A DNA stretch of 64,000 nucleotides, from NCBI GenBank assembly GCA_944376205.1, contig CALWBV010000006.1, positions 7,868 through 71,867 of the forward strand, read 5' to 3'. Numbering within the stretch: the stretch's first letter is position 1; the number at the start of each line of letters is the position of its first letter. Both the position numbers and the translations under genes were made by a program. Of the stretch, positions 6,119 through 58,277 are shown piece after piece. Source of the DNA: an uncultured Christensenellaceae bacterium (GTDB lineage: Bacteria > Bacillota > Clostridia > Christensenellales > UBA3700). The notes beneath the pieces were generated by a model. That model did no database searches. It saw only the letters and a list, made by a program, of their open reading frames with translations, and was not told the DNA's origin.

Positions 6119-6515
6119 TACCCACTGCTTGCGAACACACAATGGTTTATACTTTTTTTTCGTGTGCCCCTATACAATGGTGCTTATTTATGCTAACGCA
6201 GTGTATATTACTTTTTTTCGTGCGCCCTTGGAGAAGGGTGCAGAGTTTGCTTTTTCGAGGTCGCCCGCAAAGGCGCGTACTAGATGTACGTAACTGCCGC
6301 GGGCGCACCGCTGATAAAAGCTAAATATGTGCCATTATACAAGGGCGCCTATTTATGCGAACGCAGTGTGTATTACTTTTTTTTCGTGCGCCCTTGGAGA
6401 AGGGTGCAGAGTTTGCTTTTTCGAGGTCGCCCGCAAAGGAGCGTACTAGATGTACGTAACTGCTGCGGGCGCACCGCTGATAAAAGCTAAATATGTGCCC
6501 TTATACAAGGGCGCC
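6119..6515 (+). repeat. Tandem array of the intergenic repeat family (166-bp period: two full units, one internally deleted unit and a head fragment)
   Basis: Full units are 6217-6349 and 6383-6515. They differ at 3 positions by my alignment. Each has the head TTCGTGCGCCCTTGGAGAAGGGTG and the tail GTGCCCTTATACAAGGGCGCC. The array ends 3 nt from the stop codon at 6519-6521. Confidence 0.9.
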
Positions 6516-6518
6516 TAT

Positions 6519-9017
6519 TTATCTTTTGCGCCAGATACGATATACCTCACCGCCAGCCAACGCAATCATCTTGACAGCATTGGGAGTAATCTCGTCAACA
6601 TATACTTTGAGTTTTTTGTTGACAACCTGACCGTCTTCGATAATGAGGTAGTTTGCATTCTGTACGCCGATACCGCCTTCTCTTATGGAATCGATGGTAA
6701 CAATGTCTCCGTCGTCAAACTGTCCTACGATATCGTCGAGAGAAACAGTGGTCTTGATAAATCTCATGAACTTGTTCTCTTCGGTATATACGTCAGCAAG
6801 CTGTTCTGCAAGTTCGTCGGGAAGCTGCTCTGCCTGTTCGAGAGTTATGGAATCTCTGACAAGATAGCCGTAACCTTTTCTTTCTGCAAGAGTCATTCCT
6901 TCGGGAGAGAGTTCCTCTGTAAAGTCTTTCTCTTTATATCTGGGCTTTTTCTCGAGGGCACAAGCTTCTGCAGTCTTTGCGATGAGTTCTTTTGCCTTCT
7001 TTACTGCGAGTTTGGATCTTACAGGCATGAGCGTAGGAATTTCGACAACACCTCTCTTTTCGCTCATATCCTTGTGGTGATAGTACTTCTCATCGAGAGA
7101 TGCGGGATCGAGTGCAAGGTAGAGTTTGAGAGTCTTGCCGTTGATGACTATTCTCGCCTTGGTCTCACGACTGTGATTGAAGTTTTCCTTGGTCTTGCTG
7201 ATTCTGTTTCTGAATCCGTAAGAAAGGAGTTCGTTTTTGAGTTCTGAATAGAATTTCTTGAGGTCGTCGCTTGCAAGTCTCAATTTCGTCATAAAGGTGA
7301 ATCTGGGTCTTACACTCTTGATTGCACTGATATCCTCTTCTTCCTCGTCTTCCTCATCGTCATCCTCGTCGTCTTCTTCTTTTTGCTGATTCATAAGAGC
7401 TACGATGTTGGTCTCGATATTTGCAAGTCTTTCGTTGATTTCGTCGTCGTTTCTGTTGTCCTCTACGGGCACGTAAACTGTCTGAACGATAGGCTGTTGT
7501 TGTACGGGTTCCTCAACGGGTTCGTCGACAGGTTCCTCAACAGGTTCTTCTACAGGCTCCTCGACAGGCTCGACAACTTCTTCGACTGGTTCTTCCACAG
7601 GCTCGTCAACAGGCTCCTCTATCACTTCTGCTACAGGTTCCTCAACGGGCTCTTCGACGGGTTCCTCTACAGGCTCCTCAATAGGTTCGTCAACAGGTTC
7701 CTCGATAGGCTCTTCGATATGAACTTCTTCTTGAGGTTCTTCGATTTCCTGTTGTTCCTCGGCTGCGAAAACGGGCTTGGATATAACTACGTGCGCTCTC
7801 GTATCTCTCTTGTAGATAGACATCTTGAGCGTGTACTGACAGAGTATCAACCACAATACGCCTATGATTCCGCACGCTATGGCGATATACATATACATGT
7901 AAATTTTGCCGGTAAAATAGTACAACAGCGTGCCTATCGCACCGATTATGAATATGTAAGGCATACAGTCAACAAGGTTTGCTCTGCCTCTTACGAGTCT
8001 TATGAACAAAGATACTACCATCATTACGATTGCGGCAGCCGCAAAAACGAACGTTACGACTACTTCGAGATCGGTTGCGATAAATTCGAAATTCTCAAGC
8101 ATAGGAGATTGCGTAATGATGAATATTATCATGATACCTACGAGTGCAAGCATTACGATAAATGCAGCGTACTTGGTAAATACTACCTTGAAGTACATAA
8201 GAAGCTTGTTGCTGGCACTGTAAACCGCATCGTTTGCCTTCTCTTGTATTCTTACTTTGAATATGGCAATTCTTATCGTCATGAGCACGAGCATTATTCC
8301 CGTAAGCGCAAGCGTCATGATAGCAAGTTCGTTGATAGGCGAGAAGTGTTTGAGAATGACGCATTGCAAAATCATTCCGAAACATACCAACAGTCCTATC
8401 AGCAAGAATGCGTCAAGCGAACAAACTTTCTGACTGCGCATCGTGATAAACGCCCATACGACAAGTGCCGCGCCCATTATCGATACGAGAACGATCATAG
8501 GCACTTTGTGTTCCTGGAAGAAAGAAATACCTGCGCCGTCTGCGATGTCTGCCGCAAAGAATACTACGTAAAGCAAACATGTAATAGGCAAAAACGTGAT
8601 AGGATTGTAGAATTTGAGCAACGAACCGAAGTAAAACGCAACTTTGTTACGCTTTTTCTTCTTGCTGTCGTCTTCCTCTTCTTCTTTTACCTCGTGGCTG
8701 TCGTAAGTCTCATAACGGAGTTCACCGCCGGGACCGTAAGGAAGCTCGTTTTCTTCTTCCTTTTCGGGTTCGTCGATAAAGCCTACGACGGCTTTTTTCT
8801 TCTTACCCTTTTTGCCCTTTGCCTCGGCAAAAGTATCGACGCTCTTTTTCTTCTTTTTGGACTTGTCCTTTTTACCTTCGGCCTGTACTCTGACAATAGT
8901 AGTCTGTTCGGGTTGAGGTTGTGCAACCTCCTCCTTAACTTCGGCTACATTCTCGGGTACTGCCGCAGTATCTAAAGTCTGGTCTGTGTTTTCTGCTTTT
9001 TTCTTGGCTTTTTTCAT
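6519..9017 (-). CDS. Large hypothetical membrane protein: Lys-rich N-terminus, about 8-10 TM helices, (P-V/I-E-E)n acidic repeat, globular C-terminal domain
   Basis: 832-aa ORF. Contains EEPVEEPVEEPVEEPV repeats and the acidic run EEDDEDDDEEDEEEED. The C-terminal roughly 70 aa (VSLDDIVGQFDDGDIVT...KKLKVYVDEITPNAVKMIALAGGEVYRI) resemble the C-terminal module of ribosomal protein uL15. Confidence 0.75.
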   Translation of the reverse strand: MKKAKKKAENTDQTLDTAAVPENVAEVKEEVAQPQPEQTTIVRVQAEGKKDKSKKKKKSVDTFAEAKGKKGKKKKAVVGFIDEPEKEEENELPYGPGGELRYETYDSHEVKEEEEDDSKKKKRNKVAFYFGSLLKFYNPITFLPITCLLYVVFFAADIADGAGISFFQEHKVPMIVLVSIMGAALVVWAFITMRSQKVCSLDAFLLIGLLVCFGMILQCVILKHFSPINELAIMTLALTGIMLVLMTIRIAIFKVRIQEKANDAVYSASNKLLMYFKVVFTKYAAFIVMLALVGIMIIFIITQSPMLENFEFIATDLEVVVTFVFAAAAIVMMVVSLFIRLVRGRANLVDCMPYIFIIGAIGTLLYYFTGKIYMYMYIAIACGIIGVLWLILCQYTLKMSIYKRDTRAHVVISKPVFAAEEQQEIEEPQEEVHIEEPIEEPVDEPIEEPVEEPVEEPVEEPVAEVIEEPVDEPVEEPVEEVVEPVEEPVEEPVEEPVDEPVEEPVQQQPIVQTVYVPVEDNRNDDEINERLANIETNIVALMNQQKEEDDEDDDEEDEEEEDISAIKSVRPRFTFMTKLRLASDDLKKFYSELKNELLSYGFRNRISKTKENFNHSRETKARIVINGKTLKLYLALDPASLDEKYYHHKDMSEKRGVVEIPTLMPVRSKLAVKKAKELIAKTAEACALEKKPRYKEKDFTEELSPEGMTLAERKGYGYLVRDSITLEQAEQLPDELAEQLADVYTEENKFMRFIKTTVSLDDIVGQFDDGDIVTIDSIREGGIGVQNANYLIIEDGQVVNKKLKVYVDEITPNAVKMIALAGGEVYRIWRKR
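7506..7717 (-). repeat. In-frame 12-nt-period coding repeat (PVEE/PIEE units)
   Basis: The plus strand shows repeated GGTTCCTCNACNGG / GGCTCCTCNACAGG units, which translate on the minus strand as EEPVEEPVDEPIEEP. Confidence 0.85.
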
Positions 9018-25369: not shown

Positions 25370-25613
25370 TGCGAACGCATATAGCGGCGCATATTTGCGA
25401 TTTTGCGCAAGCAGTTGCGCTCGGTTACGTACGCCTAGTACGCTCCGCTCGCGAACTCTCTTCAAAACCGCAACTCTACACCACTCTCCGCGCTCGCACG
25501 AAGTGGGTAATATAATGACGCTTGCGCACTTACGTATATACAATATGCGCCTTTACGGGCGACCTTGAAAAAGCCAACTCTACATCCTTCTCCAAGGTCG
25601 CACGAAGTGGGTA
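25370..25613 (-). repeat. Intergenic repeat family, two units read tail-to-head on the plus strand
   Basis: ...GTTACGTACGCCTAGTACGCTCCGCTCGCGAACTCTCTTCAAAACCGCAACTCTACACCACTCTCCGCGCTCGCACGAAGTGGGT, then ...GGGCGACCTTGAAAAAGCCAACTCTACATCCTTCTCCAAGGTCGCACGAAGTGGGT. It begins right after the UPF0210 stop. Confidence 0.85.
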
Positions 25614-25700
25614 AAAAATTCAAAAGCCCTATTGCAAATCAATGTATGCAGCTGCATTATTGACAAGCGAGGTGCACGACTTATACACGAAGCAACTTTT

Positions 25701-25739
25701 AATTTATACAATTTAAGCCTTAAGTAAATTGTATAAATT
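25701..25739. repeat. 39-nt AT-rich perfect hairpin (copy 1 of 3)
   Basis: AATTTATACAATTTA-AGCCTTAAG-TAAATTGTATAAATT. 15-bp arms and a 9-nt loop. Confidence 0.9.
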
Positions 25740-25761
25740 ATTTTATATAAGAAATATATAT

Positions 25762-26114
25762 AGGAAGCCAAGCCATTGGAGAGTGCTGTGATTTTGTGAA
25801 TTTTCAGCGGTTGTCCCAATCATAAGCGTAACTAATACGTGCTTGTATACAAACAATAGAAAGTAACTCTAAATCTAAAAAGGAAGAGCCGTCGGAGATT
25901 GGTGCGATTTTTGCTTTTCTAAGACCGAGTGCGACAGGAGCGTACTTGTCAGAAAAGACACACTAATATAAAAATATAAAGGAAGTAAAGCCCTTGGAGA
26001 TTGGTGCAGAGTTGCGGTTTTGAAGAGAGTTCACGAGGGAGCGTACTTCTAGTACGTGACCGAGCGTAACTACTCGCACAAAACCGCAAATATGTGCCGA
26101 TATACAAGGGCGCA
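25762..26114 (+). repeat. Intergenic repeat family, three units (two degenerate) read head-to-tail on the plus strand
   Basis: The heads are CCATTGGAGAGTGCTGTG, CGTCGGAGATTGGTGCG and CCCTTGGAGATTGGTGCAGAG. The last unit ends ...AAATATGTGCCGATATACAAGGGCGC, 8 nt before the rlmB ATG. Confidence 0.75.
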
Positions 26115-26121
26115 CAAGAAT

Positions 26122-26847
26122 ATGAAAATAGAAGGAAGAAACCCCCTAACCGAAGCCCTCGATTCTGACATCAAAATATCGAGGATCTACGTATCGAAGA
26201 CTGCACACGATTTGCAGCCTTTGATTGACAAGGCAAAAAACAAAAAGATCCGCATAGACTTTGTGGACAGAGCTTTCCTGGACAAAATGAGCGAAAGCAA
26301 ACGCCATCAAGGAATTATCGCTGTGAGCGAAGAATACAGCTACGCAACTATTGAAGACATTCAGCAAGTCGCAAAACAAAAGGGCGAAAAACTCTTTGTG
26401 CTTATTCTCGATTCTATCGAAGACCCTCACAATCTCGGCAGTATCATAAGAGTAGCTGAATGCGCAGGCGCACACGGTATTATCATACCTTCACGCAGAA
26501 GCGCAAGCGTAAACGCTACCGTTTTGCGCACCTCGGCAGGCGCAGCTAACCATATAAAAGTCGCTATGGTCGGCAATATCAACGACGCTATCCGACAGCT
26601 CAAGGACGACTTCGTCAATGTCTATTGCGCCGATATGCAAGGCACTACCCTGTACGACTGCCGTTTTGACGAAGACGTGGCAATCGTCATAGGCAACGAG
26701 GGCGACGGCGTAAAAGCACTTACCGCCAAACTCTGCAATCACGTGGTATCTATACCCCAATTCGGCAAAGTAAATTCACTCAATGCGTCGGTGGCTTGCG
26801 GGATTATTTGTTATGAAGTCATCCGTCAAAGGCGCAACCTTGTATAA
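26122..26847 (+). CDS. rlmB: 23S rRNA (guanosine-2'-O)-methyltransferase RlmB (SpoU/TrmH family)
   Basis: MKIEGRNPLTEAL..., DPHNLGSIIR, IGNEGDGV and SLNASVACGIICYE motifs. The upstream extension of the ORF to 26056 lies in repeat sequence and is rejected. Confidence 0.9.
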   Translation: MKIEGRNPLTEALDSDIKISRIYVSKTAHDLQPLIDKAKNKKIRIDFVDRAFLDKMSESKRHQGIIAVSEEYSYATIEDIQQVAKQKGEKLFVLILDSIEDPHNLGSIIRVAECAGAHGIIIPSRRSASVNATVLRTSAGAANHIKVAMVGNINDAIRQLKDDFVNVYCADMQGTTLYDCRFDEDVAIVIGNEGDGVKALTAKLCNHVVSIPQFGKVNSLNASVACGIICYEVIRQRRNLV

Positions 26848-27180
26848 GGGCGTGCCTTTGACTTTTTCTGCGACACTTCTGCTTAGTCACGTACGGCTAG
26901 TACGCTCCTTTCGCAGTCGGTCTGGAAAAAATAAAAATCACACTCTTCTCCAAGGTCGCATGAAGTAAACGATATAGCTGTGCGCTTTTGCGTGTGACCT
27001 AGAAAAAGAAAAATCACCCCGCTCTCTGTACTTGCGAAATACTTATAAAAAATTAGGTCGCATAAAGCAAACGATATAGCTGTGTGCTTTTGTGTGTGAC
27101 CTAGAAAAAGAAAAAATCACACCACTCTCCGCACTTGCAAGAAGTACAAAACGCACACTCTTCTCCACGGTCGTATAGTT
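26831..27180 (-). repeat. Intergenic repeat family, one full and about three partial units
   Basis: GGCGCAACCTTGTATAAGGGCGTGCC...AGTCACGTACGGCTAGTACGCTCCTTTCGCAGTCGGTCTGGAAAAAATAAAAATCACACTCTTCTCCAAGGTCGCATGAAGT, followed by partial units. The terminal palindrome contains the rlmB stop codon (26845-26847). Confidence 0.85.
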
Positions 27181-27316
27181 AATGTAATATCGACGGCTTA
27201 TGCAAGATAAAAAATAAATACTTAAAAACAAAAGTCGGCTGATGCCGACTATTATTTGCTTTGTAGTGTTTGTCTGTAAAGCTGAATATGCGAAAAATGC
27301 ACTTTGCAAACAATAA

Positions 27317-27874
27317 TTATTTATCCAAATCTTTTTTGAGTTTTCTTTTGATTTTTTGAAGGACGTTGTCTACGTATTTGGTGTTTTTGCCGAGACGGTC
27401 GGCTATCTCTTTGTAACTTATTCCTTCATAATAGCAATCTAGTATTTGCTTTTCCGAAGACGTAAGTCCCTTTTCTATAAGCTCGTGAAGGCTTTCGTCC
27501 TCCTCGGCTTTTATGGCTATTTCCTCGGGAGATTGTTCTGCCATTTTTCTGTCGTCAAGCACGCTGATAGGCACACTGTCCGTCAAAGGTTTGTGTTTGT
27601 TACGCTTGCTGTTGCGTCCGCAGTCCTTGATCCTGTTGCGAATACAACTCGTGGCATAAGTAGTAAATGCTATATTACTCGTCGTGTCGTAAGTCAGCAC
27701 GGCGTTGTAAAGCGCAATCATGCCCTCTTGTGCTATATCCTCGATATCCACTCCTTTTATAAAATACACTCTGGACAGCTTGTTGACCAACGCTTTGTAT
27801 TTTTCCATAAGCGTTTCAACGGCATTGACGTCGCCTTTGCGTATTCTCTCTATAAGCTGAATATCGTCGGTCAT
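27317..27874 (-). CDS. sigH: RNA polymerase sigma factor SigH-like (sporulation/stationary-phase sigma-70 family)
   Basis: IEDIAQEGMIALYNAV... and the C-terminal SYKEIADRLGKNTKYVDNVLQKIKRKL closely parallel Bacillus SigH. The start at 27874 overlaps the thyX stop as ATGA. Confidence 0.8.
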   Translation of the reverse strand: MTDDIQLIERIRKGDVNAVETLMEKYKALVNKLSRVYFIKGVDIEDIAQEGMIALYNAVLTYDTTSNIAFTTYATSCIRNRIKDCGRNSKRNKHKPLTDSVPISVLDDRKMAEQSPEEIAIKAEEDESLHELIEKGLTSSEKQILDCYYEGISYKEIADRLGKNTKYVDNVLQKIKRKLKKDLDK

Positions 27875-28620
27875 TTCTCGTACTTTGCAAGGATTTGTTT
27901 TTGTTTTGCTCTGACTTCTGCCGCCTTGCCGCAGGTCATCTTGCCTTCGCTGCACGCACCCGATACGCATGAAGCGCCGCAATCCGCAAATACGCTGGGA
28001 GCCACTTCGAGAACAAGTTCGAGCATTCTCCACGCAACCTCTCGTATTTCCCACTGCGCACGGTTGCAACATCTCAACTTGAAGAAATTGAAAAGTTCTC
28101 TTGCGTTCATGGTCACGATCATTTTAGTTTCGGCAGCGTTGGGAAGCACGAATCTGGCGTCCTCATTGGATTTTTCACACGCACCGCCTAGAAGAGTCTG
28201 CCACTCCGTGTACCAACCGTGCATGGTGTCCATCTGCTTTTTGAATTTGTCCACATATTCCTCGCCAAGCGCCTCAATGCTTTCGGGGATAACGTAATTG
28301 AACGTTTCGCCCGACTTATTGGCGTCGACGTATCTTTGGGACTTAACGCTGAAAGAAGCTATTCTGTGCCTCGTAATCTGCGCAAGCAAACTTCTGGATA
28401 CTCCCTCGATGCCGAAAGTGAAGTTGGCATGTTCGAAGGGAGAAGCGTGTCCGAACGATCTCAAACGTGCAATAAATTTTGCGATATTGGTTTCGTCGAG
28501 TCCCTCTTTGAGATTGGCTATCGTCGCATCGCTGTAACATAGCTTTGCAGCAAGTGCAATCGTACGTTCGGGATTGGGTGTATATTCCAAAAGCGTTACG
28601 CTGGGTTTTACCTGTGCCAT
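27871..28620 (-). CDS. thyX: FAD-dependent thymidylate synthase ThyX
   Basis: The ThyX motif RHRIASFSVKSQRY (RHRxxSxxxxSxR) is present. 249 aa. Confidence 0.92.
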   Translation of the reverse strand: MAQVKPSVTLLEYTPNPERTIALAAKLCYSDATIANLKEGLDETNIAKFIARLRSFGHASPFEHANFTFGIEGVSRSLLAQITRHRIASFSVKSQRYVDANKSGETFNYVIPESIEALGEEYVDKFKKQMDTMHGWYTEWQTLLGGACEKSNEDARFVLPNAAETKMIVTMNARELFNFFKLRCCNRAQWEIREVAWRMLELVLEVAPSVFADCGASCVSGACSEGKMTCGKAAEVRAKQKQILAKYEK

Positions 28621-28739
28621 AGTTTCCTCCGCTGTATGTGGTCTTTAATGCCTTTATATTCTACTTCATCGGGCAGGCTTTGTCAATCCTTTGCCGACTG
28701 TCATGCTCTACTTGTAAGTACTTGTGTTGTCTGTTGGTT

Positions 28740-29162
28740 TTATTGGCGAGCGACGTTGCCCGTTTCGCAAAGTCCCAAAATCTCGCCTAGTCTTTGGTTT
28801 TGCCCCGTCAGATACAAATAACCTATAACGGCTTCAAAACCGCTTGCCGCCTTATAATCCGCAACGCTTGCGTTTTTTGCCATGGAATGCTGATGAGAAT
28901 TGCGTGCACGTCTGAATATGTCCTGCTCGTCCTCGTTGAGCATTGCCTCGATTTTTCTCATGCACTCCGCCTGAGCACCTGCATTTACTCTGGCGGTCAC
29001 GTACTTATGAAGCTTGTCCGCCTTGCCCGTCGTTTCGTTGAGCGCTTTGAGTCTGATATACAAAGTATGCACGCCGTCACCGACATAAGCAAGCACGAGA
29101 GGGTTTAGCTCCCGTGCCTGTTTTAAGGTCATAATATCGTTGTTTTGCGGTAAAAAATTCAT
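28740..29162 (-). CDS. mrnC: Mini-ribonuclease 3
   Basis: LNPLVLAYVGDGVHTLYIR signature. 140 aa. Confidence 0.85.
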   Translation of the reverse strand: MNFLPQNNDIMTLKQARELNPLVLAYVGDGVHTLYIRLKALNETTGKADKLHKYVTARVNAGAQAECMRKIEAMLNEDEQDIFRRARNSHQHSMAKNASVADYKAASGFEAVIGYLYLTGQNQRLGEILGLCETGNVARQ

Positions 29163-32106: not shown

Positions 32107-32243
32107 AAGTCGCCGTTGTATATCAGCGTATCTTTTCCTTTTGTCTGCGACGCTCGCCCTCAGTCACGTACGATAAGTACGCTCCTTTCGCGCTCGGTCT
32201 TGAAAAAGAAAAATCTGCACTAATCTCCAACGGCTCCACATTT
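32107..32243 (-). repeat. Intergenic repeat family, one unit abutting the RBS of the FGGY kinase gene
   Basis: AGTCGCCGTTGTATATCAGCG...CTCAGTCACGTACGATAAGTACGCTCCTTTCGCGCTCGGTCTTGAAAAAGAAAAATCTGCACTAATCTCCAACGGCTCC. Confidence 0.8.
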
Positions 32244-32394
32244 CTGTGTGAGTATTAAATTTTTCAATTTTTTGAAGTCCGTAATTATATCGGCTTCGGG
32301 TTTATGTGTTTTTCGTTTTATCAATTACGATATCCGCATCAAAGGGATTATCTCATATCAGAAAGATAGAATCTCCGTCATGATTTTGAGGAGC

Positions 32395-32433
32395 AATTTA
32401 TACAATTTAAGTCTTGGATAAATTGTATAAATT
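32395..32433. repeat. 39-nt AT-rich perfect hairpin (copy 2 of 3)
   Basis: AATTTATACAATTTA-AGTCTTGGA-TAAATTGTATAAATT. Confidence 0.9.
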
Positions 32434-32547
32434 ATCTTCTTATGCGTACACGTATATGTGCGCAAAATAAGTAAAACAAAATCAATATTATCCCCTTTTG
32501 CTCCGCCATTGGAACACTAGGCTGTGAATAATATTGAAATATCTTCA

Positions 32548-32587
32548 CCGACTGCCGCAAAGCTGCGGCAATCGGTATTTTTATTTT
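32548..32587 (+). terminator. Strong plus-strand intrinsic terminator with no upstream plus-strand CDS
   Basis: CCGACTGCCGCA-AAGC-TGCGGCAATCGG (12-bp stem, one mismatch) followed by TATTTTTATTTT. The U-tract exists only on the plus strand. Confidence 0.6.
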
Positions 32588-32662
32588 GTAGCTTTGTTCC
32601 CCTCTCAAACCGCAAAAGAAACACTTTTTATTTGTACCCTATCTGATTAAGATAGTACCGAT

Positions 32663-42093: not shown

Positions 42094-44355
42094 TCAACTT
42101 ACAATACCTGCCGTCTCCGCACCGCCGCCGGTATCCTGTCCTGACGATGGTTGTTTTTCCTCTCCGCCCAGCGCTCCTACTATGGCATTACGTATAGGCA
42201 ATATTTTATCTTCGCCTATCATGTCGGCAAGCATATCGCATGCTTTATCCACGCCGTATATCAGAACTTCGTTGATAGTTTGCGCTCCGACTTCCGCCTT
42301 TGCCTGTTGGGCAAGGAAATAATATCCAACTCCGAGTGCCGCAACTAAAATTATTGTAAGTATCAACCACATAACGACAATACTTCTTATAAGCGCTGTC
42401 CTTGACTTGTTGCCCACGCCGAAAAACCAGCATATGCACGCAAATAAGTTAATAAGCGGTATTGCAAGAACTATAATAGTGCCTATCCATTTGCCTACCG
42501 TCATCGGATAGTTGCGCAAATCCATTTCGTCAAAACGCGACGCTTTTTTTGCTATCTTGCGCTGTTTTCTCGTCATGTTTTCTTTTTCAGGCAACGTAAC
42601 GACTACCGTCTGTCTGTCGCTGCTGACAAATCTAGGGACAAAAGGCTGCTCGGAATTATCATTCGACGCTTGTGTTTTGTCCTGCGAAGCGTTGACCGCC
42701 GTCTGTGCTACCGCACCGCCGTAAACGGCATTCACAAAGTCTCCGCCGAGCATATCCGTCTCCTCGGGAATAGCTTTGCGCTCCTCTTTGTATTCTGTCA
42801 TATCGACAAAACCGTCTGCTTCGTTTGTCTCTGCGTTTTTCGACTTTTTGTTCTTTTTGTCGAGTTTTGCCTGTTCTTTATCGGCAAGCGCCTGCTTTTT
42901 CTTATCGAGTTTGTCTTGCTTTGCCTGCTCTTTTTGATTCTGCTTTTCAAACTTGGCTTGCGCCTTATCCTGCTTGGCTTGCTCTTTGGCATTAAGCTTA
43001 TCTTGCTTTGCCTGTTCCTTGGCTTGCTTGTCTGCCGCCTTCTTTTCTTCTGCTTCTTTTATCTTTTGCTGCTTTAAGTCGGCAAGCTCTTGTTTTTGTC
43101 TCTCTTTCTCGTCAAGCTGCGCTTGTTTGTCGGCAAGTTTTTGTTGTTTTTCCTGCTCTTTGGCATTCAACTTGTCTTGCTTTGCCTGTTCTTTTTGATT
43201 GAGCTTGTCTTGTTTTGCTTGCTCTTTAAGCTGTCTCTCCTGTTCTTTTTTGAGCAAAGCGTCGTGTTTTTGCTGTCTTTTGATCTCGTCTTTTGTCAAA
43301 GGTATCTGTTGAGGCGCTTCGTTTGCGTTGAAATCGTATTCGTTTCCGCCCTGCAATTGTCCGTATTGGGGCACGCCGTAATTATCCTGTGCGCCTGAAT
43401 AAGCGTAATTCTGCGCACCGTAGTTGTCGTATGCGTTAGCGCCTGCATAGCCGTCCGAAGCTTGGGTATAACGGGGTCTCGCTTCCTGCTCGGGTTGAGC
43501 GTATCCGCCGTATTGTGCAGGCTGGCTGTATTGAGGTCTCGCTTCCTGCTTGGGTTGAGCGTATCCGCCGAATTGCGCAGGCTGGCTGTATTGAGGTCTC
43601 ACTTCCTGCTTGGGTTGAGCGTATCCGCCGAATTGCGCAGACTGACTGTATTGAGGTCTTGCCTCCTGCTCGGGTTGAGCGTATCCGCCGTATTGTGCAG
43701 GCTGACTGTATTGAGGTCTTGCCTCCTGCTCGGGTTGAGCGTATCCGCCGTATTGTGCAGGCTGACTGTATTGAGATGCGATATTCTGTTGTGTTTGATT
43801 GGGTTGAGTATAGGGAGACTGCACAGACTGTCTGTCTCCGTTAAAAGGTCTGTCTCCCGATAAAGCCTTATTGTCGGGTTGAGAATTTGTTCTGTCGGCT
43901 ACCGGCTTATTGAAAGCATAATTGCCCGTTTGTGCAGGACGAGGTTTCTGCTCCTTCTGATGAGCAGATTTTGCAAACCCGAACGAACTCGTTCCGAGAT
44001 ACTTCTTCTCGTTTGACGAGGCAGGTTTTTCTGTAGACTGATGCTTGGGAAATTTTTGTTTGGACGGAATAGGATTGTTGTGACTTGCGGGTTGCTGCTC
44101 GTTGAGTCCCGAAAGCGCATTGGCAAAACTGTTGCCGAAATTGTTAGAATACGTATTATCCACATATGCGGGAGCGTAGTCGTCCTCTCTTTCTTCCTTT
44201 TGCGGTATGCCGTACTCATCCGCAGCCCATACCGATTTAGGAGTAGACGACTGCCATTGAGATGCGTTATCCTGCTGTGCAGATTTATCCGCTTTACCGT
44301 CAAAGCCGCCCTGATATGCCTTATAATCCTTGTCGTTGTCGTTGTTGTTGAACAT
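42094..44355 (-). CDS. Large hypothetical protein: Gln/Pro/Tyr-rich 20-aa repeats, Lys/Gln/Glu coiled-coil-like repeats, C-terminal TM domain
   Basis: Start at the ATG 5 nt after GAGGGG (MFNNNDND). It has five RPQYSQPAQ(Y/F)GGYAQP(E/K)QE(A/V) units. A long (A/E)KQDKLN(A/Q)KEQ run follows. At least three TM helices lie near the C-terminus. Confidence 0.75.
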   Translation of the reverse strand: MFNNNDNDKDYKAYQGGFDGKADKSAQQDNASQWQSSTPKSVWAADEYGIPQKEEREDDYAPAYVDNTYSNNFGNSFANALSGLNEQQPASHNNPIPSKQKFPKHQSTEKPASSNEKKYLGTSSFGFAKSAHQKEQKPRPAQTGNYAFNKPVADRTNSQPDNKALSGDRPFNGDRQSVQSPYTQPNQTQQNIASQYSQPAQYGGYAQPEQEARPQYSQPAQYGGYAQPEQEARPQYSQSAQFGGYAQPKQEVRPQYSQPAQFGGYAQPKQEARPQYSQPAQYGGYAQPEQEARPRYTQASDGYAGANAYDNYGAQNYAYSGAQDNYGVPQYGQLQGGNEYDFNANEAPQQIPLTKDEIKRQQKHDALLKKEQERQLKEQAKQDKLNQKEQAKQDKLNAKEQEKQQKLADKQAQLDEKERQKQELADLKQQKIKEAEEKKAADKQAKEQAKQDKLNAKEQAKQDKAQAKFEKQNQKEQAKQDKLDKKKQALADKEQAKLDKKNKKSKNAETNEADGFVDMTEYKEERKAIPEETDMLGGDFVNAVYGGAVAQTAVNASQDKTQASNDNSEQPFVPRFVSSDRQTVVVTLPEKENMTRKQRKIAKKASRFDEMDLRNYPMTVGKWIGTIIVLAIPLINLFACICWFFGVGNKSRTALIRSIVVMWLILTIILVAALGVGYYFLAQQAKAEVGAQTINEVLIYGVDKACDMLADMIGEDKILPIRNAIVGALGGEEKQPSSGQDTGGGAETAGIVS
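43473..43775 (-). repeat. Five tandem 60-bp near-identical coding repeats
   Basis: Plus-strand unit: GTATTGAGGTCTCGCTTCCTGCTYGGGTTGAGCGTATCCGCCGWATTGYGCAGGCTGRCT, repeated 5 times in phase. Confidence 0.9.
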
Positions 44356-44705
44356 CTTTCCCCTCAATTTGTCCTTAAGGACCTGTAAAATAAACTTTCA
44401 CTTTCACACACAATACGTCTTTTGTCAGGCAATTGCACTCCGTAATGCAAAATATCCGCCTAACGACGCATTATGATTTTACTACAAATATGAATATCTG
44501 TCAATTAAAGTCAATGAGAGGTTTTGAAGGATTTTTTTGCCATATATGACATTTATGCGCCTTTTCCCGAAGAAAAAAGCGCATATCGTCCATAAAAAAT
44601 TCAACATTTTCATATTTTGCGCATGCTGTAAAAACACACATGCCGCCCCGCCCGAGTTGAGCTTGCTATATTGCCGCAAAATTCTTAAGCGTAATCGTCT
44701 AAAAT

Positions 44706-47011: not shown

Positions 47012-47161
47012 TAGGCGACCTTGTATAAGGGCGCACCTTTTCCTTTTATCTTCGACGCTCCTACTCAGTCACGTACGGCAAGTACGCTCCTATCGTAGTC
47101 GGTCTTGAAAAAGAAAAATTCACACTCTTCTCCAAGGTCGCACGAAATGGGGCAATAAAAG

Positions 47162-47204
47162 AAAAAACGACCACTCTCTGCAATAGCACGAGAGTGGTTT
47201 TTTC
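47162..47204 (+). terminator. Hairpin terminator GACCACTCTC-N11-GAGAGTGGT plus T-run
   Basis: AAAAAACGACCACTCTCTGCAATAGCACGAGAGTGGTTTTTTC. This is the likely fba terminator, lying after the first repeat unit. Confidence 0.7.
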
Positions 47205-47332
47205 ACCTTTCTTTATGCAAGAGTTGCCTCTCTCGGTTAAATAAGATATTATGCGCCTTTGCGGGTGACCTCGAAAAAGAAAAAACTGCACTAATCTCTG
47301 CGGTTGCACAGAGTTTGCAATAACCAAAAACT

Positions 47333-47370: not shown

Positions 47371-47583
47371 ATAGAATAATATTTAATTATTGTAGATAAT
47401 AAAATACAAGTCAGTTTTACTATGCCGTCAATATCCGTTTTCTTCCTTATTCTACTTATCATCGACATAGTCTATCTATGCCTTGAGCGCAAGTATCTTA
47501 AAAAAGTAAACGCAGAAAATGTAATTAGCGAAAAAGAAAATCTCAAAACTGACTGACTATATTATTATACTTAAATATTAAAA

Positions 47584-47622
47584 CAATTTATACAATTTAA
47601 GTCTTGGGTAAATTGTATAAAT
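47584..47622. repeat. 39-nt AT-rich perfect hairpin (copy 3 of 3)
   Basis: AATTTATACAATTTA-AGTCTTGGG-TAAATTGTATAAATT. Confidence 0.9.
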
Positions 47623-47748
47623 TAGCTTTTCCCCTTACGCACGTATGTACATGCAAAAAGCCGCTTAAAATGCGGCTGATAAATTTCATATATTTTTATA
47701 TTACGCCCTCTGTATAATTCTCATAAAGGACAATCTTTTTATTATATT

Positions 47749-48233
47749 ACCGACTCCGTGCGACCTTGGAGAAGAGTGTGAATTTTTCTTTTTCAAGACC
47801 GACTACGACAGGATAGCATATAATACAATATCCGCTTGGAAAAAAGTACCGACAAACGGTTTTATTCGCTTGTTGAATATATACCGTTTCGTTTGGTCGG
47901 TATGGACAAACCCGACATTTTGTCTTACGCTTTCGACACCTCGGAAGCGTAGGTATTTTGTCGTGGTGAGCGAACCGTGACCGAGCGTAACTGCTTAAAA
48001 AAATTCGCAAAGGCGCACCACCATATTACCCACTTCGTGCGACCTTGGAGAAGGGTGTGATTTTGCAAATTATAGAAATTTATCAATTTAATATTACTCA
48101 CTCCTTGCAAGTGCGGAGAGTGGTGCAGAGTTTGTCTTTTCAAGACCGAGTGCGACAGGCGCATACTTTGCGTATGTAACTGAGCGCGAGCGTCGCAGAC
48201 AAAGGCAAAATATGCGCCGCTATACGCACTTGC
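47749..48233 (+). repeat. Intergenic repeat family, about three units read head-to-tail, ending at the stop codon of the 245-aa gene
   Basis: CCGTGCGACCTTGGAGAAGAGTGTGAATTTTTCTTTTTCAAGACCGACTACGACAGG..., then CACTTCGTGCGACCTTGGAGAAGGGTGTG..., then CTCCTTGCAAGTGCGGAGAGTGGTGCAGAGTTTGTCTTTTCAAGACCGAGTGCGACAGGCGCATACTTTGCGTATGTAACTGAGCG... Confidence 0.85.
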
Positions 48234-52791: not shown

Positions 52792-52830
52792 AAACTTATC
52801 TCCTTGCTAAAGTATAAAGGTATAAAAGAC

Positions 52831-52866
52831 AATTGTCAACCATTTTTGTAAATTTGGTTGACAATT
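52831..52866. promoter_or_regulatory. BirA operator (bioO) overlapping the birA-bioY promoter
   Basis: Perfect inverted repeat AATTGTCAACC-N14-GGTTGACAATT, matching the Firmicute BirA site pattern TGTnAACC-N14/15-GGTTnACA. On the minus strand, TTGACA (within the operator arm), a 17-nt spacer and TATACT form the promoter. Confidence 0.8.
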
Positions 52867-52882
52867 GAGAGTTTAATATTTT

Positions 52883-57787: not shown

Positions 57788-58277
57788 TTCTTGCAAGCAC
57801 AGAATAGTTGCAGAATAGCGACTTTGAAGAGAGTTCGTGAGCGGAGCTTACTAGACAAAATCGCAAATATGCACCGCTACATTAACAACTTCGTGCGACC
57901 TTGGAGAAGGGGGCGATTTTTTCTTTTTCAAGACCGACTACGACAGGAGCGTACTTGCCGTACGTGACTGAGTAGGAGCGTCGAAGATAAAAGGAAAAGG
58001 CGTGCCACTAAATTACCAACTTTGTGCAAGCACGGAGAGTGGTGTGATTTTGCGAATTTTAAGAGAGTTCGCGAGCGGAGCATACTTTGCGTATGTAACT
58101 GAGCGCAAGCGTCGCAGATAAAGGCAAAAGATGTACTTACCCACTTCGTGCGACCTTGGAGAAAGGTGTAGAGTTGGCTTTTTCAAGGTCGCCCGTAAAG
58201 GAGCGTACTAGACGTACGTGACTGCAGCGGGCGTACCGCTGACAAAAGTCAAATATGCGCCCTTATACAAGGTCGCC
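57788..58277 (+). repeat. Intergenic repeat family, four tandem units alternating two head subtypes and ending at the gdh stop codon
   Basis: The heads are TTCTTGCAAGCACAGAATAGTTG (subtype 2), AACTTCGTGCGACCTTGGAGAAGGGGG (subtype 1), AACTTTGTGCAAGCACGGAGAGTGGTG (subtype 2) and CACTTCGTGCGACCTTGGAGAAAGGTG (subtype 1). The last unit ends ...AAATATGCGCCCTTATACAAGGTCGCC at 58277. Confidence 0.9.

Follow-up and report, generated by a model that had tools for sequence, protein, structure and literature searches.

What kind of element is the 39-nt, A/T-rich perfect hairpin that lies at positions 32395-32433 of a 64,000-nt stretch of contig CALWBV010000006.1, from an uncultured Christensenellaceae bacterium, and that recurs twice more within this stretch (hereafter the window)? 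Our preferred answer, to which we assign a probability of roughly 45%, is that the 39-mer is a locus-fixed member of a clade-restricted, vertically inherited family of extragenic DNA palindromes, each a structural or protein-recognition DNA site under sequence constraint.

An earlier, sequence-only reading of the window had described three perfect 39-nt hairpins with the same arms and a variable loop, and this description was borne out. A search for AATTTATACAATTTA-N9-TAAATTGTATAAATT with up to three mismatches allowed gave exactly three matches in the window, each with zero mismatches and all with their loops in the same strand sense (Table 1); 100 dinucleotide-preserving shuffles of the window gave none. 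The positions reported for copies 1 and 2 were exact, and copy 3, previously placed at 47584-47622, lies one nucleotide further along. Each copy is predicted to fold into a 15-bp stem with a 9-nt loop, at -10.3 kcal/mol as RNA (z about -5 to -6) and at -9.6 to -9.8 kcal/mol as DNA (z about -8), and at copy 1 the perfect inverted repeat reaches 16 bp (25700-25740). The arms have the form of a direct duplication, AATTTA-TAC-AATTTA; unlike the arms of REPINs, they are not themselves palindromic REP (repetitive extragenic palindromic) sequences. The similar segment that the same reading had noticed after copies 2 and 3 is also real, and corresponds to the two alternating purine/pyrimidine tracts of Table 1.

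The family extends beyond the window. When one genome of each prokaryotic species was scanned for the inner 11-nt arms with 5-13 nt between them, 75 stretches were returned. Nine-nucleotide loops of the AGYCTTRKG type were confined to three metagenome-assembled genomes (MAGs; CASERZ01, CALWHJ01 and CALWKW01) named 'uncultured Christensenellaceae / Christensenella', and the matches in other taxa, which had unrelated loops or other loop lengths, we take to be chance. No family member was found among IMG/VR viral contigs, nor in JGI metagenomes, where the only four matches were all judged to be chance as well. Since the window is 72-88% identical in nucleotide sequence to the CASERZ and CALWHJ loci, it comes from a further related species. 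Counted with loop variation allowed, as the sequence-only reading had recommended, the non-redundant family comprises 75 copies in about 0.5 Mb of fetched DNA (three MAG species and the window), or about 25 copies per genome. The hairpin was the sole recurrent perfect inverted repeat in about 0.5-0.6 Mb, the remainder being single bidirectional terminators, and our literature search found no paper on such an element in Christensenellaceae.

Across the 75 copies, both stem and loop are strongly constrained. Stem positions 2-3, 6-8, 10 and 12-15 are invariant, positions 5, 9 and 11 are altered once each, and the single C:G pair is kept in 74 copies. The outer four pairs come mainly in three types, AATT/AATT (38 copies), TATA/TATA (18) and TATT/AATA (16), and hybrids of two arm types are nearly absent (3/75). 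In 72 of the 75 copies no stem position is unpaired, and the rare inner changes (T5A, A11T) are compensated on the opposite arm. Variation in the stem consists of exchanges between A and T, except for one G:C replacement and two single G.T cases (in loci L009 and L081; L-numbers are the labels of the fetched hairpin loci, such as L010 from CASERZ and L028 from CALWHJ, with L076-L081 denoting loci of conspecific strains). Most copies have an extra T:A pair outside the 39-mer, giving a 16-bp stem, and the base adjoining the stem is T in 61/75. The loop follows the consensus A-G-Y-C-T-T-R-K-G, five positions of which are nearly invariant.

The copies also keep their positions between species. For each of the window copies, an orthologue exists in both close species (copy 1 at L010 and L028, copy 2 at L023 and L051, copy 3 at L048 and L053), with an unaltered stem in a spacer that can be aligned only in part. 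When both flanks could be matched across species, including the distant CALWKW, whose flanking proteins are 65-92% identical, the hairpin was there in 64 of 68 comparisons, a figure that is biased upwards because the loci were fetched via their hairpins. In distant orthologous pairs the arms mostly differ at 0-2 of 30 positions, and the 80-nt flanks are 45-63% identical, which is near noise. The stem subtype is generally specific to a locus and common to its orthologues. The one clear case of presence in one close species and absence in the other (L047 versus L024) is an indel of ~530 nt between two convergent terminators; because it displays neither a duplication nor a clean element boundary, we see no sign of current mobility in these sequences.

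The same holds within the species. Contigs of conspecific strains were found via identical DUF711 and aldolase proteins, and every locus carried its hairpin in all strains examined (6 for copies 1 and 2, 10 for copy 3). Copy 3 was identical in its 10 strains, and the sole stem change anywhere was one A-to-G substitution, giving the G.T mismatch in copy 2 of L081. The spacers in which the hairpins sit are hypervariable among these strains, with 20-47 mismatches per 250 nt plus indels, against 0-5 in the adjacent genes. Left of copy 2, about 110 nt (within 32236-32394) exist as two very unlike haplotypes among strains L076-L081, with nearly identical flanking genes. The window haplotype resembles other species, and a search for a donor of the divergent left flank in the conspecific strains found none. 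To the right of copy 2 the strains do not differ in sequence, which places the break in similarity at the hairpin.

One feature that does vary is the direction of the loop. Relative to the flanking genes, the loop runs in opposite directions at orthologous sites in at least four comparisons (L005/L066, L064/L027, L071/L006 and L032/L059). Flips also occur between strains: at copy 1 the loop reads CTTAAGGCT in five of six conspecific strains and AGCCTTAAG in the window and one strain, with an identical right flank in all. Template switching at short inverted repeats is known to yield both arm homogenization and spacer inversion (PMC8604942; also PMC8794818). Because arm co-variation and loop flips are its known products, we conclude, by inference from these sequences, that pairing between the two arms takes place in the cell, at the level of DNA. 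Template switching explains the perfect symmetry of the arms and the flipping of the loop, but leaves unexplained why the arms and five loop positions match a consensus across species, for which purifying selection is needed. That a loop can be swapped for its complement at orthologous sites further argues against a sequence-specific RNA loop.

Taken together, these patterns lead us to propose a family that may be REP-like in lifestyle, yet a family of its own, and that would work as DNA and not as RNA. During replication, the arms would fold back on themselves, and template switching would keep them perfect and flip the loop; a host factor recognizing the duplex, or an extruded hairpin or cruciform, would impose the conservation of sequence. 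This factor could be a topology-related or chromosome-organizing protein, and the site, or its untranscribed A/T-rich spacer, would be a preferred accumulation point for the 127-nt palindromic repeats described below. Three roles had been envisaged for the hairpin from the window's sequence. A protein-binding site in the generic sense is the best supported of them, given invariant arms amid diverged flanks, although its more specific form, recognition by an HUH enzyme, finds no support in the motif and gene searches described below. A cruciform or DNA hairpin is favored indirectly, by the co-varying arms and the in-place loop flips. The third, a terminator or processing site, conflicts with a stem made of A/T pairs but for one, the lack of a consistent U-tract, the terminators that precede the hairpin, the loop flips and the absence of an Rfam match.

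Several observations weigh against this proposal. As the stem variants are exchanges between A and T, base pairing alone leaves the constraint unexplained, and arms as perfect as these would equally be expected for an RNA, or for the substrate of an enzyme acting on single-stranded DNA. Some copies lie 14-70 nt past a stop codon without a terminator in between, and may thus be transcribed. Copy 2 is followed by a + strand terminator amid - strand genes, so that a transcript could start at or cross it. Within one genome, subfamilies of copies have common A/T-rich tails of ~35 nt, which shows that the elements once spread as larger units, by duplication or transposition. Finally, every functional attribute considered here, be it a binding protein, a cruciform or Z-DNA, is one that we infer from sequence.

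We next consider the setting of the copies, all of which are intergenic. A canonical terminator stands between gene end and hairpin in 44 of 82 intervals, often ending 27-34 nt from the stem. Among the 46 copies whose spacer could be classified, 18 lie between convergent, 21 between tandem and 7 between divergent genes. The two flanks differ, one containing G+C and the other being A/T-rich. The gene on the G+C-containing (tract) side points at the hairpin in 38 of 52 cases; on the A/T side, 26 genes face the hairpin and 23 face away from it. From these terminator and orientation counts, the typical copy therefore sits in a spacer beyond terminators, without a consistent relation to promoters. 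The polarity of this module tracks the prevailing direction of transcription and replication; loop direction is not correlated with GC skew.

The G+C-containing flank is distinctive. An alternating purine-pyrimidine tract that contains G/C and is at least 12 nt long occurs within 70 nt in 40 of 72 copies, compared with 3.3% of control windows; with the minimum raised to 18 nt, the values become 19/72 and 0.6%. Stem and tract are usually 7-16 nt apart, and the opposite flank typically has a (TA)4-5 run at 11-15 nt. The tracts, 12-24 nt in length, mix CG, CA, TG and TA steps, and their sequence differs between copies and even between strains. Among the strain differences checked, including those at copy 3, alternation was preserved. 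Such tracts would be prone to form Z-DNA, and may have arisen either by selection or by transition-only decay of an ancestral tract.

The window copies are also accompanied by longer repeats. The repeat unit is a 127-nt imperfect palindrome, whose profile matches both strands (one copy folds at -65 kcal/mol, z = -7.3) and whose termini are small hairpins resembling GCGACCTTGKAKAAGGG; about 100 copies were counted in 0.63 Mb of related DNA. The sequence-only reading had placed the hairpin always at the core of these repeat loci, with a tail-to-head unit on the left and head-to-tail units, degenerate at copy 2, on the right. In the window, - strand units indeed lie left of all three copies and + strand units lie right of copies 1 and 3, but right of copy 2 the unit model finds none, and a weak resemblance to a unit start is visible by eye only. 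The central position holds for the three window copies, but family-wide about half of all hairpins, especially in CALWKW, have no unit nearby, so that the hairpin is independent of the units; for this half, the ground on which the sequence-only reading would have given up its view, numerous copies without a link to the repeats, does apply. The association is nonetheless statistically real: in all four genomes hairpin spacers hold units much more frequently than neighboring spacers do (p 1e-5 to 6e-3), with odds ratios of 17-22 in the two close MAGs and undefined values, owing to empty cells, in the other two. At copy 3, units stand in mirror orientation on both sides in 10/10 strains; the outermost are constant and those near the hairpin vary in number. 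At two loci, L010 and L031, exactly 5 nt separate the unit end from the stem, and the sequences of L004 and L057 show the same spacing. An 8-mer, TTATACAA, is common, when read by eye, to the unit terminus and the hairpin arm. Because the number of copies per spacer varies among conspecific strains, the units look REPIN- or MITE-like (miniature inverted-repeat transposable element) and active or recently active. No transposase associated with them was seen. The units may preferentially enter or accumulate at the hairpin or within its spacer.

Table 1. Hairpin copies, flanking tracts, terminator and 127-nt units in the window
Feature	Positions	Strand	Remarks
Hairpin copy 1	25701-25739	.	Loop AGCCTTAAG on + strand
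Hairpin copy 2 (the copy first singled out)	32395-32433	.	Loop AGTCTTGGA
Hairpin copy 3	47585-47623	.	Loop AGTCTTGGG
Alternating purine/pyrimidine tract, 24 nt, perfect (TATGCGTACACGTATATGTGCGCA)	32441-32464	.	7 nt from copy 2
Alternating purine/pyrimidine tract, 20 nt (TACGCACGTATGTACATGCA)	47636-47655	.	12 nt from copy 3
(TA)n run (ATATATATA)	25754-25762	.	14 nt from copy 1, A/T-rich side of module
A/T-rich tail left of copy 3	47558-47584	.	Hairpin-proximal ~21 nt and hairpin conserved with orthologues
Intrinsic terminator GCCGC...GCGGC with U-run	47655-47677	-	Stops right-side transcription just before tract and hairpin
Units left of copy 1 (one full, one partial)	25370-25602	-	
Units right of copy 1 (one partial, one full)	25888-26114	+	Abutting SpoU/RlmB-like methylase gene
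Unit left of copy 2	32111-32233	-	Abutting start of FGGY kinase gene
Units left of copy 3	47015-47308	-	Abutting end of class II aldolase gene; 2 to 5 among strains
Units right of copy 3	47759-48233	+	1 to 3 among strains
Further unit locus	6221-6514		
Further unit locus	26834-27138		
Further unit locus	57894-58276		

Within the chromosome, the family seems confined to one part, as far as contig names and lengths indicate. In each MAG, all hairpin copies are on contigs totaling about 0.61-0.67 Mb, at a density of about one copy per 27-30 kb. In CALWHJ and CALWKW, record numbers follow the SPAdes length order, which implies at least about 0.70 Mb (CALWHJ) and 0.87 Mb (CALWKW) of hairpin-free contigs, including the largest of each bin; at the density observed on positive contigs, hairpin-free contigs of such size are very unlikely by chance. 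Among the genes near the copies are rpsF-ssb-rpsR, gltX, S10-operon proteins, ksgA and tatD. The window itself has a cluster of genes for a SpoU/RlmB-like methylase, a small sigma-70-family factor, thyX and Mini-RNase III at 26056-29162. Genes such as those near the copies, and the mrnC-rlmB-sigH neighborhood, are origin-proximal in other Firmicutes, and the likeness of the window cluster to that neighborhood suggests that the replication origin is not far away. Over the entire window the GC skew is negative, and neither a parS site nor a DnaA-box cluster was found when looked for in the fetched DNA.

Among other explanations, the one that survives best, unlikely though we consider it, is a REP-type non-autonomous mobile element, whose single-stranded DNA hairpin would be cut and copied by a single-copy domesticated Y1/HUH transposase (REP-associated tyrosine transposase, RAYT). 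As described in the REP/REPIN literature, these systems consist of short extragenic palindromes that are clade-restricted, vertically inherited and long-lived, and the hairpin likewise occurs as tens of copies in one clade; the common tails of subfamilies and the preference for spacers at gene 3' ends point the same way. So does the apparent limitation of the copies to a subset of contigs, as for Marinomonas REPtrons. RAYTs cut at CT dinucleotides, and REPs are defined by GTAG at the 5' foot of the palindrome, those of group 3 including perfect palindromes (PMC8266576); here, the stem is preceded by a pyrimidine-rich '...YCTT', and the CTT of the loop does not vary. However, GTAG (or CTAC on the opposite side) was found within 8 nt of the stem in only 4/75 copies. 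RAYT genes are normally flanked by REPs, and yet a screen of open reading frames (ORFs) of at least 80 aa for the Y1 signature P[NDEST]-H-hydrophobic-H-hydrophobic found none in about 0.75 Mb (window, loci and strain contigs), nor any within 2.5 kb of hairpins. Pfam searches detected no transposase or integrase domain in 46 window ORFs, all of them housekeeping, or among the top 25 families listed for 131 representative ORFs near hairpins, so that the search for HUH/Y1 or integrase genes suggested by the sequence-only reading came back empty in the DNA and ORFs covered. In addition, the sites are nearly all syntenic and fixed among strains, with one ~530-nt indel and no clean pair of insertion and empty site, and flips in place are tolerated, which would be unexpected for a strand- and loop-specific enzyme.

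With GTAG in so few copies and no ORF bearing the Y1/HUH signature in about 0.75 Mb, the hairpin does not qualify as a REP in the strict sense, and two other mobile elements fared no better. A MITE would leave a target-site duplication, and there is none, as the outer 4 bp vary as inverted pairs (TATT...AATA) and not as direct ones; moreover, 64/68 orthologous sites are filled and the one difference between close species is the indel already described. A palindrome-associated element derived from IS200/IS605 (PATE) needs two unlike subterminal hairpins together with TnpA/TnpB, whereas a single symmetric hairpin is found here, and no ORF with an HUH motif in about 0.75 Mb.

Somewhat further from acceptance, and doubtful in our view, is an extension of the DNA-site proposal, in which the Z-prone tract, the cruciform-prone palindrome and the (TA)n run would form one composite non-B-DNA module, of which ~25 copies, in untranscribed spacers over roughly the origin-proximal third of the chromosome, would be read by a dedicated protein that organizes or topologically insulates this domain. 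If true, this would be a new kind of chromosome-structuring site, with a logic like that of matS, ram or strong gyrase sites but based on structure.

A site for site-specific recombination or targeted insertion, whether a lox/FRT-like core or a landing pad for the 127-nt units, appears less probable again. The geometry of 15-bp inverted arms around a conserved, asymmetric 9-bp center (15 + 9 + 15) is similar to that of tyrosine-recombinase cores, where arms enclose a crossover region of 6-8 bp, and many of the features of the units described above would fit: their strong enrichment in hairpin spacers, their mirror orientation and varying number near copy 3, the ends at exactly 5 nt from the stem and the shared 8-mer. 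The sharp difference between conspecific strains on one side of a hairpin, with identity on the other, would fit as well. Yet about half of the copies have no unit nearby, and no recombinase gene was seen adjoining the copies, although this test was not exhaustive. About 25 proficient sites would scramble the chromosome, whereas synteny is high, and an enzyme could not invert a spacer as short as 9 bp between its own arms. An integron attC site was rejected as well: the arms are perfect, GTTRRRY is lacking and the copies are not in cassette arrays.

A role in RNA, whether in stabilizing a 3'-UTR (untranslated region), in processing or in forming the 5' hairpin of a small RNA running from the A/T-rich side to the bidirectional terminator, strikes us as improbable. 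The fold is stable for its composition, stem variation is perfectly compensatory, certain copies directly follow stop codons, and many A/T tails have, by eye, TATAAT-like boxes. A strong and conserved + strand terminator also lies ~115 nt downstream of copy 2, between two - strand genes; it is for this terminator and for the copies right after stop codons that we keep RNA as a minor rival. These points are set against the swapping of the loop for its complement at orthologous sites and between strains, the near-absence of G.U-type intermediates (the two single cases at L009 and L081) and the terminator that usually stands between gene and hairpin. The whole window gave no Rfam match at the gathering threshold, and a scan found no tRNA or tmRNA; at an E-value threshold, two of the three loci gave only chance-level matches (E ~0.04 to 4), far below gathering scores. 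The flank of copy 2 has no covariation support on either strand for a conserved structure beyond the hairpin, no consistent -35/-10 geometry was evident by eye, and a consensus promoter scan at copy 2 found 0 sites. The hairpin itself was rejected as an intrinsic terminator: it has one G:C pair in 15, and the mixed A/T sequence downstream contains no consistent U-tract.

The spacer of copy 2 holds further features. The intrinsic terminator on the + strand is strong (32547-32588, with its stem at 32547-32576, -20.3 kcal/mol and a U-run), and the ~120 nt upstream of it (within 32434-32592, +) exceed the adjacent coding sequence in their conservation across three species. An unannotated small transcript leading away from copy 2 (32434-32592, +) is possible. 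A small protein was also considered at two places. In the case of a 21-aa ORF left of copy 2, the frame is not kept in other species by our own translation. Left of copy 3, a 33-aa hydrophobic ORF was rejected as part of the element, since it sits in an insertion that is absent from the other two species. This insertion (47380-47560) carries the ORF at 47423-47524 (+; MPSISVFFLILLIIDIVYLCLERKYLKKVNAENV), and a 44-aa gene is called thereabouts in strain contig L088; the product is reminiscent of the small membrane peptides that act as type I toxins.

That the hairpin controls a regulon of about 25 operons, either as an operator or activator site bound by a dimeric transcription factor or as a piece of a special promoter, is in our judgment very improbable. 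A palindrome with invariant half-sites is what such a factor would bind, the A/T-rich side faces a gene start within ~30-220 nt in about half of cases, and the copy number resembles that of a global regulon. Still, 18 of the 46 classifiable copies, a share second only to the tandem ones, lie between convergent genes and hence have no promoter, and genes on the A/T side point away almost as often (23) as towards the hairpin (26). The neighboring genes share no function, the copies flanking housekeeping genes and not lying in arrays; an apparently recurrent neighbor protein family was rejected, as its translations look like paralogous multi-pass transporters of the sugar/cation-symporter type and are not adjacent to hairpins. 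Independent recognition of half-sites does not predict that hybrids should be so rare (3/75), and near-invariance over 39 bp far exceeds that of known operators. A classical operator we rejected on account of the many convergent spacers and the unrelated functions of the neighboring genes.

Least credible of all is a functionless relic of an old burst of small elements, kept by the self-correction of palindromes and the neutrality of deletion: template switching can hold arms perfect without selection (PMC8604942), but self-correction equalizes the arms and not their match to a consensus, on which ~75 copies agree although their flanks no longer align, and the hairpin stays intact within spacers that are hypervariable inside a species.

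The window also holds features of other kinds. Just upstream of birA-like (helix-turn-helix plus biotin ligase) and bioY genes, two perfectly matching inverted arms of 13 bp enclose a spacer of 12 nt (CAATTGTCAACCA...TGGTTGACAATTG, 52830-52867), probably a BirA operator. Two long ORFs contain in-frame tandem repeats: one of 832 aa (6519-9017, -), with a 12-nt period at 7479-7748 and only a marginal Ribosomal_L27A-like C-terminal match, and one of 757 aa (42094-44367, -), with about five copies of a 60-nt period at 43396-43798 and without an informative Pfam domain. The called length of the product of the latter differs among strains.

Knowledge of dispersed extragenic palindromes comes mainly from Proteobacteria, whose examples are G+C-rich and associated with RAYTs. 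The family described here would carry this theme to uncultured gut Clostridia, with a perfect stem that is A/T-only but for one pair, a conserved loop that flips and alternating tracts alongside, and it is further unusual in its near-complete positional conservation and apparent regional distribution. It may offer a natural system for studying the maintenance of palindromes by template switching, as well as a candidate structure-based DNA site for topology, chromosome organization or repeat targeting. In practice, the hairpin points to spacers in these MAGs at which variation between strains is concentrated. Were it an inert relic, its value would lie mainly in being a well-documented example of palindrome self-correction.

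Compared with known systems, the closest likeness is to the REP and BIME (bacterial interspersed mosaic element) sequences of Enterobacteria and Pseudomonas with their RAYTs, which are likewise lineage-specific extragenic palindromes, inherited vertically, located in spacers at gene 3' ends and clustered with other repeats. They number tens to hundreds of copies, above the about 25 found here, and binding of gyrase, IHF and Pol I to REP/BIME DNA has been reported. The hairpin differs from a REP in an A/T instead of a G+C-rich stem, in the larger size of that stem (15-16 bp), in its conserved 9-nt loop and in having no GTAG or RAYT that we could see; it also lies mostly outside transcripts and not in 3' UTRs, and its position is almost completely conserved between species. 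REPINs, in which two inverted REPs form a long hairpin, are similarly long-lived and vertically inherited, and match the 127-nt units better than the 39-mer, again with no RAYT seen.

Other comparisons concern single aspects. Core sites such as loxP and FRT have the same inverted arms (13-15 bp) around an asymmetric center of 8-9 bp, 34-39 bp in total, but the hairpin has about 25 chromosomal copies and no recombinase identified. CIRCE, the HrcA operator (TTAGCACTC-N9-GAGTGCTAA), is also an inverted repeat with a 9-bp spacer, although of another sequence, in 2-3 copies and only upstream of chaperone operons, whereas the hairpin is not linked to promoters. The sites of MatP (matS), RacA (ram) and parS share with the hairpin tens of copies of one palindrome, here seemingly confined to about 0.6 Mb; matS occurs about 23 times in about 800 kb, and ram about 25 times in about 612 kb. 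Sites of this kind span 13-16 bp, are often intragenic and without a loop, and have known binding proteins, while the regional confinement of the hairpin is deduced from contigs. In their mode of change, finally, the copies resemble hairpins shaped by template switching, as in yeast inverted repeats (PMC8604942) and RNA hairpins (PMC8794818), which show the same perfect arms and spacer flips between orthologues and between individuals. Such inversions are a mutational process and not a function, and in the present case they act on a multi-copy family with a conserved sequence. Small hairpin-associated inversions and arm homogenization are likewise known from the non-coding hairpins of plastids.

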